Positions 651-38,916 of a stretch of 64,000 nucleotides of DNA are shown in pieces. Origin of the DNA: Gammaproteobacteria bacterium (GTDB lineage Bacteria > Pseudomonadota > Gammaproteobacteria > UWMA-0217). Where the stretch lies: assembly GCA_027081275.1 (NCBI GenBank), contig JALWKV010000002.1, forward strand, positions 1,071 through 65,070, read 5' to 3'. The notes below the pieces were generated by a model that was not told where the DNA came from, ran no database searches, and saw only the letters and a program-made list of their open reading frames with translations. Both the position numbers and the translations under genes were made by a program. Position 1 is the first letter of the stretch. Each line of letters starts with the position of its first letter.

Positions 651-933
651 AGAGACTGTTGCAAACACCCTCTCCCCACCGGGGAGAGGGTTTGGGAGAG
701 GGGGTAAAGCACTGTTTTCATCCTCTCTCCACCCCTCTCCATCAGAGGTTGACGCAAAAGTGATAACTTTGCGGCAACCTCACGCAGCACAAGGATGTGC
801 TGCCAGAAACAACGACAATAAGTTGTTGTTTCTGTGAGAAAAGGAAGAATCGCACTTTTTCCTTTTCGTGTATCGCAAAATCCTGGACAAACTTTTGCGA
901 CACCCTCTCAAGGAAGAGGGAGTTTTTCGAGAC
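651..933. repeat. Mosaic intergenic repeat (modules A+B), hairpin-rich and MITE-like, flanked by the 9-bp direct repeat CTCTTGATA (642-650 and 934-942)
   Basis: It contains ccctctcccc..ggggagaggg hairpins and a gtcgcaaaag...cttttgcgac module. It is ~85-90% identical to segments at 3671-3830 and 46781-46935. Confidence 0.6.
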
Positions 934-2899: not shown

Positions 2900-3490
2900 A
2901 TGAAACATCTCAAATATCTTGGCGCGGCGCTGTGCCTGCTTCCTGTTCTGCTGCATGCGGACTGGTACCCCTTTGGCGACGATGACAGCAGTTACGAATA
3001 CTGGGACGGCGCCACCTACGGCCAGGGCCAGGGCTATGGCGAGGGTTACGGTTATGGCTATGGTGACAGCCGCTATCGTGGCGACGGGCGTGGCCGCGGT
3101 GATTCGGCCTTTGGTTCCATGTCCGATGCGATGAGCGACTTCATGACCAACGGCGTCGGCGACATCTTTGGCGATATCGAGCTGGACTTCGAACTGAAGG
3201 CCCGCGCCCGCGGCAAGGGCAGCGGTTCCGGCAGGGCGCGTGGCAAGAGCGACTCCCGCGCCGAGTACTACAGCAGCGGCTCGGGCTACGGTGGCTATCT
3301 TGGGGAGTACTACGGCGAGGGCGCCGGAACGGGCTATGGCAGCGGCATCGAATACTACGACGGCGGCTGGGAGGGGTACGGCTACTCCGATGGTTACGAA
3401 GGCGGCTACTATCCCTATGGCGTCGATCCCGCCTGGGGTTATGGCTATGTTCCGCCGTATTACCAGTCATATGGTTACCTGCCGTACTAG
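2900..3490 (+). CDS. secreted Gly/Tyr-rich low-complexity protein (GYG / YGxG repeats), unknown function
   Basis: It has an N-terminal signal peptide (MKHLKYLGAALCLLPVLLHA), and about half of the mature protein is Gly or Tyr (GYGEGYGYGYGD, YGGYLGEYYGEGAGTGYGSG, a C-terminal YYQSYGYLPY). A GGAGG ribosome-binding site lies 7 nt upstream, and only 15 bp separate it from the radC stop. Confidence 0.6.
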   Translation: MKHLKYLGAALCLLPVLLHADWYPFGDDDSSYEYWDGATYGQGQGYGEGYGYGYGDSRYRGDGRGRGDSAFGSMSDAMSDFMTNGVGDIFGDIELDFELKARARGKGSGSGRARGKSDSRAEYYSSGSGYGGYLGEYYGEGAGTGYGSGIEYYDGGWEGYGYSDGYEGGYYPYGVDPAWGYGYVPPYYQSYGYLPY

Positions 3491-3667
3491 CCCGGATTTC
3501 TCACCACCCTTCTACTGCGACGTTCCAATGGCGCGCCCTGGCCGGTTTTCGCTCGGTCGGAGTGCTCGACATAGTGTCGGCTATGCCTGCGCGCTCCTCG
3601 GTCGTGAAAGCCACCCATGCCGCACCCTTGATCTGTCTCGCTACGAACGGTGGTGAGAAATGCGGGG
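3491..3667 (+). mobile_element. MITE-like element family C, copy 1 (~177 bp, terminal inverted repeats CCCGSATTTCTCACCACC)
   Basis: The terminal inverted repeats are cccggatttctcaccaccc ... ggtggtgagaaatgcgggg. It is ~95% identical to an inverted copy at 38733-38916. It begins immediately after the TAG stop of the upstream gene. Confidence 0.65.
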
Positions 3668-3670
3668 TAG

Positions 3671-3830
3671 AGGCTGTCGCAAAAGCGGTAGCTTTGCGGC
3701 AACCTCGCGCAGCACAGGGATGTGCTGCCAGAAACAACGACAATAAGTCGTTGTTTCTGTGAGAAAAGGGAAAATCGCACTTTTTTCGCGTGTCGCAAAC
3801 GTCCTGGATGGACTTTTGCGACACCCTCCA
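3671..3830. repeat. Repeat module B copy (gtcgcaaaag ... ctgccagaaacaacgacaataagtYgttgtttctg hairpin ... cttttgcgac)
   Basis: It is nearly identical to positions ~765-915 within the repeat at 651-933. Confidence 0.55.
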
Positions 3831-8513: not shown

Positions 8514-10625
8514 TCAGTGGCCGGTGGGCTTGCTGGCCGTGCTGGAGGCGATCGCCAGGCTGTTGGCCTGCATGTTGCCGTTGCCGGATGACATGTTCAC
8601 GCCGATGTTGCCGCTGGCGCCGGACAGCGCATTGCCGCCCAGTACGACCCGGTTGACGGCGTTGTCGACGAGGATGTGCGTCTTGTAGGTAACGGTGCCC
8701 GAGACTTCCGTGGCCAGATTGATGTCAGACATCTCTTCGAAGCTCAGCGTGCCATTTTCGCTGCCGTTGCTGGAGGCGTTGACACTGCCGTTGATCTTGC
8801 CCGATTCACTCCCCGCGTACTTGCCGGAGGAGCTGGCCTGGGTCGAACCTGCGGCCTGGCCCTGGTAGCTTCCTTCCGCCTTGGCCTTCAGCTCGCCTTT
8901 TTCGTTGCCGCGATACTCGCCGGCCTCTCGTCCCTTGTACACACCTTGGGAGACTGCAGCGGTTTTACCCGCTTCCTCCCCCTGGTAGTAGCCTTCGTTC
9001 GTGGTTCTGAGCTTGCCCTGCTCGGTCCCCGCGAACTTGCCGGACTCCTTGCCCTCGTAGATGCCCTTGATTGTGGCCGAGGTGCTGCCTTCTTCCCTGC
9101 CTCGATAACGACCCTGGCTCGTCGCCCGGGTCTCGCCACTGGCGTCGCCGCGGAATTTGCCGCTTTCGCTGCCTTCATACTCGCCGACAGAGAGCGCTGC
9201 CGTGACGCCCACTTCGCCACCGCTGTAGCTGCCACTGCTGGTGCCGCTGTATGCGCCGGTCTCGCCACCGGTGATCTGTCCTGAAGCGTTGCCTTCATAG
9301 CTGCCGTTGGATGTCCCCTCGTAGGTGCCTTTTTCTTTCATCACGGTGATGCCGACGACAGGCAGCTTGTGTTTTCCTTTGTAGTTGCCGCTCTGCTCGG
9401 CACTTGTGGTGCCGGATTCGGTGCCGTTGTAGGAGGCCGCTATTTCGCCGTTGTAGAAGCCGCTGGTCTGGCTCTGGGTCGTTCCCGCCTCGACGCCGAT
9501 GTAACCACCGATCGATGCGGCTTCCGTGGTGCCTTCCTGCTCGCCTTCGTAGGTGCCGTTGATGGTGCCCTTGTAGCTGCCCGCGATGTGCGCCTGCGTA
9601 TTGCCGCGTGCCACGCCCTCGTAGTTGCCTGTCGACTTGGCGGCGGTCTTGCCGTAGCTCTCACCGTTGTATTCGCCTTGCAGTCTTCCAGCGTATTCGC
9701 CGGTGCTGTGCCCCGCGGTTCGTCCGCCGGTCTCACCCGCGTAGATGCCCAGCGAGATCCCTGCTGTCGCACCCTCCGCCTGACCGTTGTAGCGGCCCGC
9801 TTCCTGGCCCTGGTACGCGCCGGCGATGTTGGCGGTGGTTGTACCTTTCTCGGCGCCCTTGTAGCTGCCTGTCAGCTGCGCCGACGTGGCGCCGCTCGCG
9901 CTGCCGCTGTAGTTGGCGTTCACGCTGCCGTTGATATTCGCGTTGGTCTGACCGGCGTAGCTGCCCTTGCCAACGCCCCTGGAGGTACCGTTCGATTCGC
10001 CCTTGAGTTCGATCGTGGTGGAATCGGAGACGACGTCGTAGCGACCTTCGGTGGTGACCGAGTTGCCGATTGACTCCTGATGGACGCCGGCGGAAGCCGC
10101 CACTGGTCCGGTTGAGGAGACCGATACGGCAAAATCGTTCTTTTGCAGATTGAAATTGCCGGAAGCGATGTTGGCGCCGACGTTGCCGCTAACGTTGCTG
10201 ATGGCGTAACCATCGAGCCATGCCTCATTGCGACTGCCCGAGCTGGAAAACCTGTTGCCGTTGATGCGCTGCTCGACGAAAACCTCGGCCGTCGGGTCGC
10301 CGAAGACAAAGGACGCATCGCTGTCGGACGTGGCGATGGCAGCGGCGTTGGCCTGCATGTTGTTGTCGCCCGAGGAAATGTTCACGCCCATGTTGCCGGA
10401 GGTATCCTTCATAGCGTTCTCGTTGAGCGACGACTGGTTGTCGGCTGACTTGACGACAATGGCGTTGCCTTCGGCTGCCTGCCTATCGGAGACCGATGCC
10501 ATTGCCTGGGCCGCGACGGTATTGCCGTTTTGTGCCGGCGTCGTTTCGGTCGCAAGCAGCGGGGTGCTCGTGATGCATGCGGTGACTGCGACACAGATTG
10601 CAGTTTTCTTGTATTGGATTTTCAT
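8514..10625 (-). CDS. fapC: FapC-like amyloid major subunit with a greatly expanded repetitive linker (703 aa)
   Basis: After the signal peptide there are two N-terminal Fap repeats (SGNMGVNISSGDNNMQANAAAIA and SGNVGANIASGNFNLQKNDFAVS) and one C-terminal Fap repeat (SGNIGVNMSSGNGNMQANSLAIAS). They are separated by ~450 aa of 11-residue GxYxGxxxGxx repeats. The ATG at 10625 has a GGGAGAAGAGAG ribosome-binding site, whereas the ORF-track start at 10643 is TTG. Confidence 0.8.
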   Translation of the reverse strand: MKIQYKKTAICVAVTACITSTPLLATETTPAQNGNTVAAQAMASVSDRQAAEGNAIVVKSADNQSSLNENAMKDTSGNMGVNISSGDNNMQANAAAIATSDSDASFVFGDPTAEVFVEQRINGNRFSSSGSRNEAWLDGYAISNVSGNVGANIASGNFNLQKNDFAVSVSSTGPVAASAGVHQESIGNSVTTEGRYDVVSDSTTIELKGESNGTSRGVGKGSYAGQTNANINGSVNANYSGSASGATSAQLTGSYKGAEKGTTTANIAGAYQGQEAGRYNGQAEGATAGISLGIYAGETGGRTAGHSTGEYAGRLQGEYNGESYGKTAAKSTGNYEGVARGNTQAHIAGSYKGTINGTYEGEQEGTTEAASIGGYIGVEAGTTQSQTSGFYNGEIAASYNGTESGTTSAEQSGNYKGKHKLPVVGITVMKEKGTYEGTSNGSYEGNASGQITGGETGAYSGTSSGSYSGGEVGVTAALSVGEYEGSESGKFRGDASGETRATSQGRYRGREEGSTSATIKGIYEGKESGKFAGTEQGKLRTTNEGYYQGEEAGKTAAVSQGVYKGREAGEYRGNEKGELKAKAEGSYQGQAAGSTQASSSGKYAGSESGKINGSVNASSNGSENGTLSFEEMSDINLATEVSGTVTYKTHILVDNAVNRVVLGGNALSGASGNIGVNMSSGNGNMQANSLAIASSTASKPTGH

Positions 10626-10654
10626 AAGACTCTCTTCTCCCAAGTGGATTGATG

Positions 10655-11508: not shown

Positions 11509-11809
11509 TGGGGACGCGGCAGGTGGCTGGCGCTTGGGGAAGAAGAGAGGTTGGATCTGTGGGAGCGTACTGTACGGGACGCAACGGCGGATGGCCGCGA
11601 GAAGCGCGGACTACATGATGAAGTGAAGAGTTTCACAGAATCGTCGGAGAATGGCGATCCTTCTTATGATTGCTGAACTTTGCGCAAAATCCCCCTGTCG
11701 GATTGGTACCGATGGTTGCCGCGCCGGGAATTGCCCGGGGTTGTGGCCGTGTCGGATCCGGTACTTCAATCGCAAATGAGCTTCGCTCAAACGACTCGGG
11801 GTAGACACC

Positions 11810-12841
11810 ATGCGCGCCAGATACGCCACGCTTTTTCTTTCCAGCCTGCTGTTTCTTGCAGCCTGTGACCCCGAAGAAACAGGCTACAAGGACTGGTCGT
11901 TTCTGACCGCGGACAAGAGCGGGGTGCTTGGCGCACCACTGATATCGGGCATGGCCTACAGCACATCGACCAATCACGGGCTGACCGATGACAAGGGCCG
12001 CTTCAACTACCGCGACGGCCAGCAGATCGGTTTCTCCATCGGCGACATCAATCTGCCGCGCGTGACCGCCAAGCCGCTGATCCGGCTGGTGGACTTCGGT
12101 GGCGGGCAGGAGAACCAGGTGGTGCGCAATATTCGCCGTCTGCTGTGGACGCTGGACACCGACGGCAATCCGGCCAACGGCATCACCATCGACGCGATCG
12201 CGCGGGAAAGGGCCAAGTCCGCCCTGGTCGACTTCAACATGCCCACCGATGCCGCTTTCGAGGCGAATGTGGCCAACTATCTGGCGCGGGTGAAACCGGC
12301 CAATCCGGTGCTGGTCTCGCTCGATGCCGCAGCGCCGGCAGCGGGCGGCACGACACCGGCGGCGAGTACAGGTGGACATGGGGGCGGCGCGGGCCAGATC
12401 CCGGTCGATCCGCCCGCGCCGGCAACATCTTCCGAGTCGACATCCGGGACGCCGACGGCGCTCGAGCCTCCGCGCCGGCTGACGGTCAACGCGGCTGCCA
12501 TCGGCATGAATATCGTCTCCGAGGATGGCGCCGGTTATGTCTTTGAAGCGCAGGCCGGCAAGACGTACACGATCACCGTGGTGCCGAAGACGCCGACCGA
12601 TGATCCCGAGGTATTCGTCTTCCGCAACTTGACCGACATGCGCAATTACTGGAGCGTGGAAGCGATCGGCGGGGTGGACTCGCCGGAAGCGACGGCATTG
12701 CGGGTCGGCATTTCGACCAGCGAGCCGGGCATGACGGAAACGATCTCGTTTACGGCCGATCGTGGCGGCGACTACTTCATCATGATCGTCGATACCTCGA
12801 ATCGCGGGAATGCGACGATCACGGTGACCGAGCAGCCGTAG
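11810..12841 (+). CDS. lipoprotein of unknown function (lipobox LFLAAC), Ala/Gly/Pro/Thr-rich linker, C-terminal beta-rich domain
   Basis: It has a signal peptide with a lipobox cysteine and coherent codon usage. It is divergent from the fap operon. No family was recognised. Confidence 0.6.
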   Translation: MRARYATLFLSSLLFLAACDPEETGYKDWSFLTADKSGVLGAPLISGMAYSTSTNHGLTDDKGRFNYRDGQQIGFSIGDINLPRVTAKPLIRLVDFGGGQENQVVRNIRRLLWTLDTDGNPANGITIDAIARERAKSALVDFNMPTDAAFEANVANYLARVKPANPVLVSLDAAAPAAGGTTPAASTGGHGGGAGQIPVDPPAPATSSESTSGTPTALEPPRRLTVNAAAIGMNIVSEDGAGYVFEAQAGKTYTITVVPKTPTDDPEVFVFRNLTDMRNYWSVEAIGGVDSPEATALRVGISTSEPGMTETISFTADRGGDYFIMIVDTSNRGNATITVTEQP

Positions 12842-12945: not shown

Positions 12946-13488
12946 CTACGGATTCCGGTGGCGGTTCTCCGCATGTTGCCGCATCAGCTTGACGTAGTGT
13001 GCGGCGGAGTAGCGCAGGTAGTTCTTTTCCTCGTCGCCAAGCGGTCGCGCGCGCCGTACCGGCGAGCCGAGCCAGAGGTAGCCGCCTTCCAGCCTTTTTC
13101 CCGGCGGCACGAGCGAGCCGGCGCCGAGCATGACGCCCGGCTCCAGCGTCGCCTTGTCGAGGACGATGCTGCCCATCCCGATCAGGCAGCCGTCGCCGAT
13201 GGTGCAGGCATGCAGCGTCGCATTGTGGCCCACGGTCACGTCGTTTCCGATCACGAGCGGGGAGCCGCCGGGGGAGTAGTGGCTGTCATGGGTGACGTGG
13301 AGCACCGAGCCATCCTGGATATTGGTGCGCACGCCTATGTCGATGCGGTGAATGTCGCCGCGGATGACGGTCTGCGGCCAGACGGAGCTTTCCTCGCCGA
13401 TCGTGACCCGGCCGATTACGGTGGCCTGCGGGTCGATCCAGGCAGAGGCGGCAATCCGCGGTGTCCATTGCTGGTGGCGTCTGATCAT
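12946..13488 (-). CDS. gamma-class carbonic anhydrase-like hexapeptide-repeat protein (YrdA/PaaY family)
   Basis: It has a left-handed beta-helix hexapeptide pattern (IGDGCLIGMGSIVLDKATLEPGVMLGAGSLV) and is 180 aa. Confidence 0.8.
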   Translation of the reverse strand: MIRRHQQWTPRIAASAWIDPQATVIGRVTIGEESSVWPQTVIRGDIHRIDIGVRTNIQDGSVLHVTHDSHYSPGGSPLVIGNDVTVGHNATLHACTIGDGCLIGMGSIVLDKATLEPGVMLGAGSLVPPGKRLEGGYLWLGSPVRRARPLGDEEKNYLRYSAAHYVKLMRQHAENRHRNP

Positions 13489-13689: not shown

Positions 13690-14577
13690 ATGCAACCATT
13701 GCACCCCCCGATGAATGTATTCGATCGCCTTCAGGCCTATGCGCAGCTGATCCGCTTCGATCGCCCGATCGGGACGCTGCTGCTGCTGTGGCCGACCTTG
13801 TGGGCATTGTGGATTGCGGCGGACGGCATTCCCGATCCGACGGTGCTGGTGGTCTTCTGCCTTGGCGTTTTTCTGATGCGTTCGGCCGGCTGCGCCATCA
13901 ACGACTATGCGGATCGCGAGATCGATCCGCATGTGGAGCGCACCCGTGACCGTCCGCTGGCGGCCGGGCGCATATCGCCGGCCGAGGCCCTCGGCGTCTT
14001 CGTCGTGCTGTCGCTGCTGGCATTTTCGCTGTTGATCTTTCTCAATGACGTGACGCGGTGGATGTCGGTCGGCGCGCTGCTGCTGGCCGCGAGCTACCCC
14101 TTCATGAAGCGCTTTCACCATCTGCCGCAGATCCATCTCGGCATCGCCTTCGCCTGGGCGGTGCCAATGGCCTATACCGCGCAGACCGGCGCCTTCCCCG
14201 ATCGTGCTGGCTGGATGCTGTTCATCGCCGCGGTGCTCTGGACCACGGCCTACGACACGATGTATGCGATGGCGGATCGGGACGAGGATCTGCAGATCGG
14301 CGTCAAGTCGACCGCGATCCTCTTTGGCGACGCGGATCGCGTCATCATTGGCCTGCTCCAGGCGATGATGCTGTTCGCGCTCTATCTGGTCGGCAGGGAG
14401 GAGGGGCTGCGCTGGCCTTGGTATATCGGCCTCGCCGCCGCCGCGCTCTTCAGCCTCTACCAGCAGTTTCTTATCCGTCAGCGGCGACCCCGGGACTGCT
14501 TTCGCGCCTTCCTCAACAACAACTATCTGGGCATGACGCTGTTTCTGGCGCTGGTGGTGGATATGGCGCTGTACTGA
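13690..14577 (+). CDS. ubiA: 4-hydroxybenzoate octaprenyltransferase
   Basis: UbiA prenyltransferase motifs [26 protein letters not shown] are present in a polytopic membrane protein. Confidence 0.9.
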
Positions 14578-38732: not shown

Positions 38733-38916
38733 CTAGCCCCGCATTTCTCGCCAGCATTCGTAGCGAGACGGCTCAAGGGTGCCGCATGGGTGGCTTTCAC
38801 GACCGAGGAGCGCGCAGGCATAGCCGACACTATGTCGAGCACTCCGACCGAGCGAAAACCGGCTGGCGCGCCATTGGAACGTCGCAGTAGAAGGGTGGTG
38901 AGAAAAGCGGGCTAGA
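38733..38916 (-). mobile_element. MITE-like element family C, copy 2 (inverted)
   Basis: It is the reverse complement of 3491-3667 (~95% identity), is flanked by CTAG on both sides, and starts 8 bp after the ccoP stop. Confidence 0.65.

Follow-up and report, generated by a model that had tools for sequence, protein, structure and literature searches.

To our knowledge, no structure is available for any of the proteins that form the envelope of sulfur globules, very few of them have been characterised, and as a group they are poorly understood. Sulfur globule proteins (SGPs) have low-complexity sequences that escape routine annotation. In the known systems their compartment is the periplasm, the globules being intracellular yet extracytoplasmic (PMC10386293). 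SgpA and SgpB are interchangeable, SgpC is required for globule expansion, and the localisation of SgpD to globules has been studied with a fluorescent fusion (mCherry); nearly all Proteobacteria that form globules carry sgp genes, between one and six of them (PMC10386293). Here we analyse a gene for a Gly/Tyr-rich, putatively secreted protein at positions 2900–3490 of a 64-kb stretch of gammaproteobacterial DNA (the whole stretch analysed, referred to below as the window). The product adds a divergent relative to the already known SGP family, and we hold with moderate confidence that it is a divergent member of the SGP (PF17228) superfamily that serves as a periplasmic envelope protein of sulfur globules.

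The open reading frame (ORF) runs on the plus strand from an ATG at 2900 to a TAG at 3488–3490 (coding sequence 2900–3490, stop included) and encodes 196 amino acids (aa). A GGAGG ribosome-binding site, read from the sequence, lies at 2889–2893 on the same strand, 6 nt ahead of the start codon. A preliminary description had placed the ORF 15 nt behind radC and given it a ribosome-binding site of its own, and both observations hold. The ORF is a real gene under purifying selection because the G+C content at third codon positions (GC3) peaks in its frame (0.736, compared with 0.61 and 0.51 in the other two frames), the gene has been called independently in two assemblies (ENA contig JOHN19-1_SAMN10217876 scaffold_302 and Logan SRR13622958), orthologues are present in three metagenome-assembled genomes (MAGs), and the ratio of nonsynonymous to synonymous substitution rates (dN/dS) is 0.10–0.38 in pairwise comparisons of the four orthologues (window, L003, L004 and L005), which differ mostly at third positions. 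No other ORF in the window combines more than 15% Gly with more than 8% Tyr.

By inspection, the first 20 residues (MKHLKYLGAALCLLPVLLHA; 2900–2959, +) form a putative Sec-type signal peptide with a basic n-region, a hydrophobic core and small residues at the predicted cut, which falls before DWYPF. The A|DWFPF junction is kept in the orthologues and is similar to that seen in canonical SGPs (A|WWGPF or A|DWDMPF). We also considered a lipoprotein and rejected it: the Leu-Cys at positions 11–12 has no lipobox before the Cys (A-A-L-C has Leu at −1). The mature part of 176 aa contains 45 Gly (25.6%) and 31 Tyr (17.6%) and carries a net charge of −15, with a pI of 4.1. Its initial characterisation as Gly/Tyr-rich holds.

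Three regions follow the signal peptide. The N-terminal region (aa 21–68; 2960–3103, +), delimited by composition and orthologue conservation, starts with a DW[YF]PFGDDD motif and continues through GYG/GQG repeats to RGDGRGRG. The central core (aa 69–120, SAFGSMSDAMSDFMTNGVGDIFGDIELDFELKARARGKGSGSGRARGKSDSR; 3104–3259, +) consists of a Met/Asp-rich segment followed by GDIFGDIELDFELKARARGKGSGSGRARG; it is devoid of Tyr, is not Gly/Tyr-rich, and is the part matched by the Pfam SGP model and by a hidden Markov model (HMM) of canonical SGPs. The C-terminal region (aa 121–196; 3260–3487, +), again delimited by composition and orthologue conservation, has 22 Gly and 22 Tyr in 76 aa, with EYYG, GYG and WGYGYVPPYY motifs, and is disordered in the predicted model. 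AlphaFold2, run with a 26-sequence alignment, gave a mean predicted local distance difference test score (pLDDT) of 48, with a single weak helix at aa 72–85 (pLDDT ~60). We therefore made no fold search, as matches to such a model would be meaningless. The model shows a Gly/Tyr-rich mature protein that is predicted to be intrinsically disordered and to have no globular fold, and in this the window protein has the SGP trait of a repetitive, Gly/Tyr-rich structural protein.

Searches with the single sequence recovered few relatives. A word-indexed homologue search found nothing, the clustered protein collection has no entry with the identical sequence, and phmmer over 1.84 billion representatives returned two matches only, P0001 (E 3.5e-8) and P0002 (E 1.1e-4), both aligned to the central non-Gly/Tyr core. 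SGP (PF17228) was the top Pfam family for the window protein (16.1 bits, E 0.02, aa 82–147), for P0001 (20.8 bits), for P0002 (16.7 bits) and for a 63-aa core fragment (aa 71–133), which scored 23.7 bits (E 8.9e-5) when scanned alone; the gathering score of the family is 26.7 bits. NCBIfam yielded only a chance match to a serine-rich protein, and a sequence search of the PDB gave chance-level matches only (best E 0.006, to a low-complexity loop of ASH2). In public gene tables the window protein carries no Pfam call.

Profiles reached further. A three-sequence profile of the core led to P0004 and P0005, both with precomputed PF17228 matches, and a 13-sequence profile led to 50 proteins, half of which (25/50) have such a match. 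One of the clusters retrieved in this way is named "Sulfur globule protein CV1" in UniRef (Solemya velum gill symbiont); all other hits with a name at source are called "hypothetical protein". Two proteins of the P0001 group, P0016 (27.1 bits) and P0018 (28.3 bits), exceed the Pfam SGP gathering score, and P0018 is 55% identical to P0001 and matches window residues 59–141 by BLASTP (1e-9). P0002 and P0004 sit inside clusters of paralogues (loci L089 and L085). Four of the L089 paralogues exceed the gathering score, at 32–37 bits; three L085 paralogues, scored only against a profile built in this analysis (A5), match that profile. In a further PF17228 protein, P0049, the SGP-type module is joined to an OmpA-like domain (PF00691).

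We compared the window protein and its relatives with a canonical SGP set of 13 proteins matching PF17228 (E ≤ 0.001; best 7.1e-20), one of which is named CV1; the Allochromatium vinosum sequences are not among them. A first hhalign result (99.1%) was discarded because the alignment consisted mostly of signal peptides, and signal peptides were cut from both alignments before the final hhalign and HMM comparisons. With mature regions, hhalign gave a probability of 97.6% (E 3e-12, score 72.9), collinear over 103 columns. The Viterbi path runs in order from the W-x-PF N-terminus through the GYG repeats, GD..GD-E-[LF]-x-[FL] and the basic G-[KR]-G repeats to the YGY-x-P end: aa 21–68 are paired with the W-x-PF...GYGDGYG start of canonical SGPs, and the YGY-x-P end of the C-terminal region is paired with their PYGYAPYGYAP. 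The score of 72.9 was not reached by any of 150 shuffles of 10-column blocks (mean 34.3, maximum 56.4) or of 150 shuffles of 20-column blocks (mean 42.5, maximum 66.0), and the reversed alignment scored 37.3. Among column shuffles (mean ~12), 1/150 reached it with a score of 135.1, which we regard as a numerical artefact of thin, gappy profiles.

The HMM built from the mature parts of the canonical SGPs gave 27.4 bits for the window protein. This score was reached by 0/1000 residue shuffles (−33 ± 4.7 bits) and by 3/500 shuffles of 10-aa blocks, and the reversed window sequence scored −6.9 bits. The 52-aa core alone scored 20.7 bits, compared with 2.2 ± 1.9 bits in its shuffles (0/1000 reached). 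The similarity to PF17228-matching proteins at the profile level, in both the HMMER and the hhalign controls, goes beyond composition: roughly half of the signal is local repeat motifs, and the remainder is the specific core motif and the order of the segments. The SGP-type architecture and the core motif are therefore present beyond chance. Because the core motif and segment order exceed the shuffles, the window protein is probably a distant homologue of the Pfam SGP proteins, with some residual doubt. A resemblance in composition to sulfur globule proteins had been pointed out in the preliminary description; the profile comparisons raise it to distant homology, with Pfam SGP as the top match even if below threshold.

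The gene belongs to a Thiotrichales lineage from a sulfidic habitat. The window comes from a metagenome (contig JOHN19-1_SAMN10217876 scaffold_302) of sample M17 (SAMN10217876 / SRR13622958), a deep-sea hydrothermal deposit taken at a depth of 1913 m in the Mariner vent field on the Eastern Lau Spreading Center, Lau Basin (Table S1 in Zhou, St. John, Anantharaman and Reysenbach 2022, PMC9793634), and markers of elemental sulfur oxidation in these deposits have been attributed to Gammaproteobacteria (PMC9793634). In a RadC scan of 185,579 species genomes, the three nearest loci, at 86–90% identity, were L003 and L004 (both "uncultured Thiotrichales") and L005. L005 is MAG 354-166_metabat2_scaf2bin.003, classified as Gammaproteobacteria; Thiotrichales; UWMA-0217, and its sister clade in the tree includes one MAG from sample M17 and one at 63.3% GC (PMC9793634); the GC content of the window is 62.3%. 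After these three MAGs of the GTDB family UWMA-0217, the next RadC relatives (~65–74% identity) include, where they are labelled to family or genus, many Chromatiaceae, Thioalkalivibrio, Ectothiorhodospiraceae and Sedimenticolaceae.

From the sequence we infer that the precursor would be exported by Sec with removal of the 20-aa signal peptide. The disordered mature protein of 176 aa would then join the thin proteinaceous envelope on zero-valent sulfur globules, like SgpA, SgpB and SgpC of A. vinosum, and homology and lineage suggest that these globules would be deposited in the periplasm during sulfide or thiosulfate oxidation. More speculatively, the Tyr/Trp-Gly aromatic repeats might provide a sulfur-facing, self-associating surface, and the central motif GD-x-x-GD-x-E-[LF]-x-[FL]-x-[LFI]-K-x-R-A-[RK]-G-K-G might make lateral protein–protein contacts. 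The candidate function offered earlier, an extracellular matrix or coating protein, is reasonable as far as it describes an exported structural or coating protein; the extracellular matrix is not where such a protein would be expected, since the known SGP compartment is the periplasm (PMC10386293).

Several observations weigh against an SGP of the globule envelope. We found no sulfur-oxidation gene (sox, dsr, sqr or fcc) within the 64-kb window, whose content is housekeeping (cbb3 oxidase, pilMNOPQ, fab genes, clpA and others). The small size typical of Sgp proteins is not seen: the mature protein has 176 aa, compared with about 78–124 aa in the canonical set, and its orthologues have ~170–184 aa, although SGP-like relatives of 160–360 aa exist. 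The Ala/Pro-rich C-terminal tail of canonical SGPs is missing, there is an extra Met/Asp-rich segment, and the protein is more acidic than its canonical counterparts, with its net charge of −15. At the level of the searches, the whole protein scored 16.1 bits with Pfam SGP and stays under the gathering score, so that it is not a member by threshold, and just two of the four orthologues match the family at E ≤ 0.1. The similarity is also largely low-complexity, with about half of the score kept in block shuffles, and the column shuffle that scored 135 did so on 25 columns at 4% identity, which shows that hhalign statistics are shaky for thin profiles.

The position of the gene is conserved. Upstream on the same strand lies radC (2213–2884, +; Pfam RadC and UPF0758_N), which is called as a 223-aa protein in L001, the same contig. 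Its stop codon ends at 2884, and in the 15-nt gap that separates it from the Gly/Tyr ORF we found no sigma-70-like promoter and no terminator; the Gly/Tyr gene is probably co-transcribed with, or read through from, radC. An Rfam scan of the window gave no match. In 41 of the related radC loci (L006–L082 were compared), rpmB-rpmG directly follow radC (a further locus, L062, has them upstream on the opposite strand), whereas the entire 64-kb window lacks them, as do L003–L005, and there the Gly/Tyr gene occupies the place behind radC. The gene took the place held by rpmB-rpmG in related bacteria, as the preliminary description had supposed from E. coli and Pseudomonas. The order coaBC-radC-Gly/Tyr gene is kept in every orthologous locus (L003, L004, L005 and L096–L099), representing four lineages, and dut is also upstream where the contig reaches (window, L004 and L005/L098). 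L096 is a strain with a 95%-identical Gly/Tyr protein. A single metagenome scan found the same four lineages only, all from the same vent-deposit project. As a separate observation, the Thioalkalivibrio loci L008, L010 and L012 likewise have no rpmB-rpmG after radC.

The main rival is that a relative of the SGP superfamily has been recruited in vent bacteria to another structural job in the periplasm or at the cell surface, for example by coating an inclusion or mineral of another kind, such as metal sulfides or particles of iron or selenium, or by forming an adhesive or cross-linkable layer rich in Tyr. Recruitment to such an envelope or coating role is a possibility that we take seriously, even though we do not think it the likely one. 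It fits a divergent clade that scores below the Pfam threshold, is nearly twice the usual length, has 17.6% Tyr and a charge of −15 and lacks the Ala/Pro tail. It also fits a clade seen in four lineages only, all of them from hydrothermal vent deposits, and a window without evidence of sulfur oxidation; and P0049, with its OmpA-like domain, indicates that SGP-type modules occur in other envelope contexts. However, both the conserved core and the collinear arrangement of segments are of the SGP type, the lineage is placed among sulfur oxidisers, and no other function is known for any member of the SGP family.

A bolder form of this idea would make the vent-only, four-lineage clade a distinct SGP offshoot with a new role. 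The strongly acidic, 18%-Tyr protein would then be a scaffold in the periplasm or at the surface that coats or nucleates a material other than biogenic sulfur, such as the metal-sulfide mineral surfaces of the chimney, or it would form a condensate-like, Tyr-cross-linkable layer, and rpmB-rpmG would have been displaced from behind radC for the sake of constitutive expression. We consider this unlikely.

Somewhat more doubtful again is the proposal that the likeness to SGPs is convergent low complexity and that the gene encodes an unrelated, lineage-specific Gly/Tyr-rich secreted protein with no assigned role. The sparse results of the single-sequence searches (two phmmer matches and none by word index), the sub-threshold Pfam SGP score and the substantial score that survives block shuffling are all compatible with convergence, as is the 82% probability that hhalign still gives for the reversed sequence. 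Yet the match is strongest in the central core, where Gly and Tyr do not dominate and whose score exceeded every one of its shuffles; segment order matters; and a chain of intermediates leads from the window protein to sequences above the Pfam threshold.

We regard as very improbable the earlier suggestion that the product belongs to the extracellular matrix and cooperates with, or modulates, a neighbouring Fap amyloid. The locus itself is where it had been reported: FapF, E, D, C and B are the best NCBIfam matches (E 9e-114 to 8.8e-22), the locus begins ~2 kb from the Gly/Tyr gene, and a VpsR-like sigma-54 activator adjoins fapFEDCB. The arrangement Gly/Tyr gene-vpsR-fapF also recurs in the 95%-identical strain L096. 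However, L004 and L005, with RadC 89–90% identical to that of the window, keep dut-coaBC-radC and the Gly/Tyr gene but have no vpsR-fapFEDCB. Directly or nearly directly behind their Gly/Tyr gene stand homologues of the window genes bordering the fap block, namely a lipoprotein-like ORF (11810–12841, +), a hexapeptide protein (12946–13488, −) and the ORF that follows it, ubiA-like by eye (13690–14577, +). Because L004 and L005 carry these flanking genes without the block, vpsR-fapFEDCB (3860 to ~11,400, ~7.5 kb) is, judging by gene order, an insertion in the window's lineage, which suggests joint acquisition of the Fap operon and its regulator as one unit. Among the loci first compared, only the window has Fap genes (L001 being the same contig), and L096 was later found to have vpsR and fapF beside the gene. 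A linkage or co-orientation with fapA-F that is conserved across genomes, as for a Fap accessory protein, was not found in these loci. The adjacency of the Gly/Tyr gene and fap is accidental and results from a lineage-specific insertion.

Other features of the gene agree with this. It is convergent with vpsR, with a 369-nt spacer between them, and its product has a putative Sec signal peptide and not a double-glycine leader of the kind cut by a C39 peptidase such as FapD. SGP-type HMMs matched none of the Fap ORFs, the FapC linker included. FapC is very long here, with 709 aa (8514–10643, −), and the 321 positions of the NCBIfam FapC model are spread over its residues 7–701. Its linker (~425 aa) and the window protein are both Gly-rich with periodic Tyr: the linker has 25 G-x-Y-x-G motifs at a period of 8 or 16 residues. 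Unlike the window protein, it is rich in Ser, Thr, Ala and Glu, has 6.8% Tyr and contains no GYG. The linker had been described as Gly/Tyr-periodic, like the window protein, and it is so only in a loose sense; the amyloid-modulating role built on it and on the position of the gene is not supported.

Two further candidates at this locus were rejected. One was a bacteriocin or microcin precursor cut by the C39 peptidase FapD: the Gly/Tyr protein has a putative Sec signal and no double-glycine leader, and the fap block is not conserved alongside its gene. The other was a fapA gene at the minus-strand ORF 11633–12379, which lies at the expected place, has no family match and has an atypical GC3 of 0.60. 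This ORF is probably a shadow of the overlapping plus-strand lipoprotein gene (11810–12841, 343 aa), which has a weak match to SslE/AcfD-type lipoproteins and a homologue in L004 (7402–8637). We did not identify fapA at the Fap locus.

The weakest alternative, a spurious ORF from which no protein is made, could appeal to the frequency of long ORFs in high-GC DNA and to the three ORFs in other frames that overlap this one, but it is effectively already refuted by a GC3 that peaks in the ORF's own frame, the correctly spaced GGAGG, the low dN/dS among four orthologues and the gene calls in two independent assemblies, and we give it next to no credence.

The spacer between the Gly/Tyr gene and vpsR also contains a repeat. 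Two direct copies of an intergenic element, ~87–91% identical and 117–165 nt long, are present at window positions 744–907, between coaBC and dut, and 3669–3826, in the spacer before vpsR that borders the inserted fap block. Each copy has a 31-nt palindrome (CAGAAACAACGACAATAAGT[TC]GTTGTTTCTG) and, in addition, another hairpin (GCAGCACA.GGATGTGCTGC). The 95% strain L096 has the element too, L004 and L005 lack it, and Rfam contains no match to it. A stretch of 46 nt immediately upstream of the second copy (3622–3667) matches window positions 38737–38782.

If the product is a globule-envelope SGP, as we favour, it represents a divergent Tyr-rich subfamily in uncultured vent Thiotrichales that extends the known sequence range of the family. 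The comparison highlights the conserved central acidic/basic motif, and not the Gly/Tyr repeats, as the real signature of SGPs, and the subfamily could be used as a marker to flag sulfur-storing capacity in MAGs. This is a known kind of biology and opens no new kind, and an attractive but mistaken connection with the Fap amyloid system is removed.

The window protein can also be compared to the eukaryotic Gly/Tyr-rich structural proteins (keratin-associated proteins and plant glycine-rich cell-wall proteins), which are similar in composition and repeat style. We found no sequence relationship to them and treat the likeness as analogy only; the sulfur-globule literature itself likens SGPs to such proteins (PMC10386293).

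P0002 and P0004, from the metagenomic L089 and L085 clusters, share the core motif with the window protein. In these loci, sgp-like genes form arrays of four to five, whereas the window has a single gene without such partners. The tandem SGP paralogues (L089 5928–11486 and L085 86–5645) have two genes interspersed among them, for single-pass membrane proteins that look coiled-coil-rich by eye, and one SGP in these clusters is fused to an EK-rich C-terminal extension of ~220 aa with repeats. Each array has the look of a gene cluster dedicated to the globule envelope.

Outside the clade, the nearest relatives by sequence are the P0001-like group (P0001, P0016, P0018, P0022 and others), metagenomic proteins of ~210–235 aa that were reached by phmmer at 3.5e-8 (P0001). 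They share with the window protein the core x-M-x-D-x-[MI]-x-D-M-[FL]-GD-x-x-GD-[FI]-E-[FL]-D-x-x-[IL]-K-x-[KR]-A-[KR]-GKG, and in both cases the gene is a single one among housekeeping genes. Unlike the window protein, they are basic (pI ~10) and Asn/Pro/Ala-rich, with ~10% Gly, ~9% Tyr and a long Pro/Tyr N-terminal region, and their genes, unlike that of the window, are placed beside znuA/ABC-3. In three loci (L093 3209–3649, L094 1354–1794 and L095 3934–4374), the P0001-like gene is located 1–5 kb downstream of lexA and a single-domain rhodanese, with znuA/ABC-3 directly downstream of it on the opposite strand; znuA/ABC-3 is also found in L086 and L087.

The reference system remains the SGPs of A. 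vinosum, SgpA (CV1), SgpB (CV2) and SgpC (CV3), and the Pfam SGP family. The window protein differs from canonical PF17228 proteins in its 176-aa mature part (compared with ~78–124 aa), in a Met/Asp-rich, helix-like segment at aa 69–86, in a long second Tyr-rich block, in having no Ala/Pro-rich tail ending in Lys, in its net charge of −15 and in its Pfam score of 16.1 bits against the 26.7 bits of the gathering score. Nonetheless, the order of segments is the same: a putative Sec signal peptide, an aromatic N-terminus, GYG repeats, an acidic GD..GD strand motif, G-[KR]-G, a Tyr/Gly stretch and YGY-x-P. Common to the window protein and the Sgp proteins are a signal peptide (in the window protein a predicted one) followed by aromatic residues, a repetitive, Gly/Tyr-rich mature part predicted to be disordered, a central acidic GD..GD-[FL]-x-[FL] followed by basic G-[RK]-G repeats, and YGY-x-P near the C-terminus. 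They also have in common a stand-alone gene among housekeeping genes and a host in a part of the Gammaproteobacteria that is rich in sulfur oxidisers.

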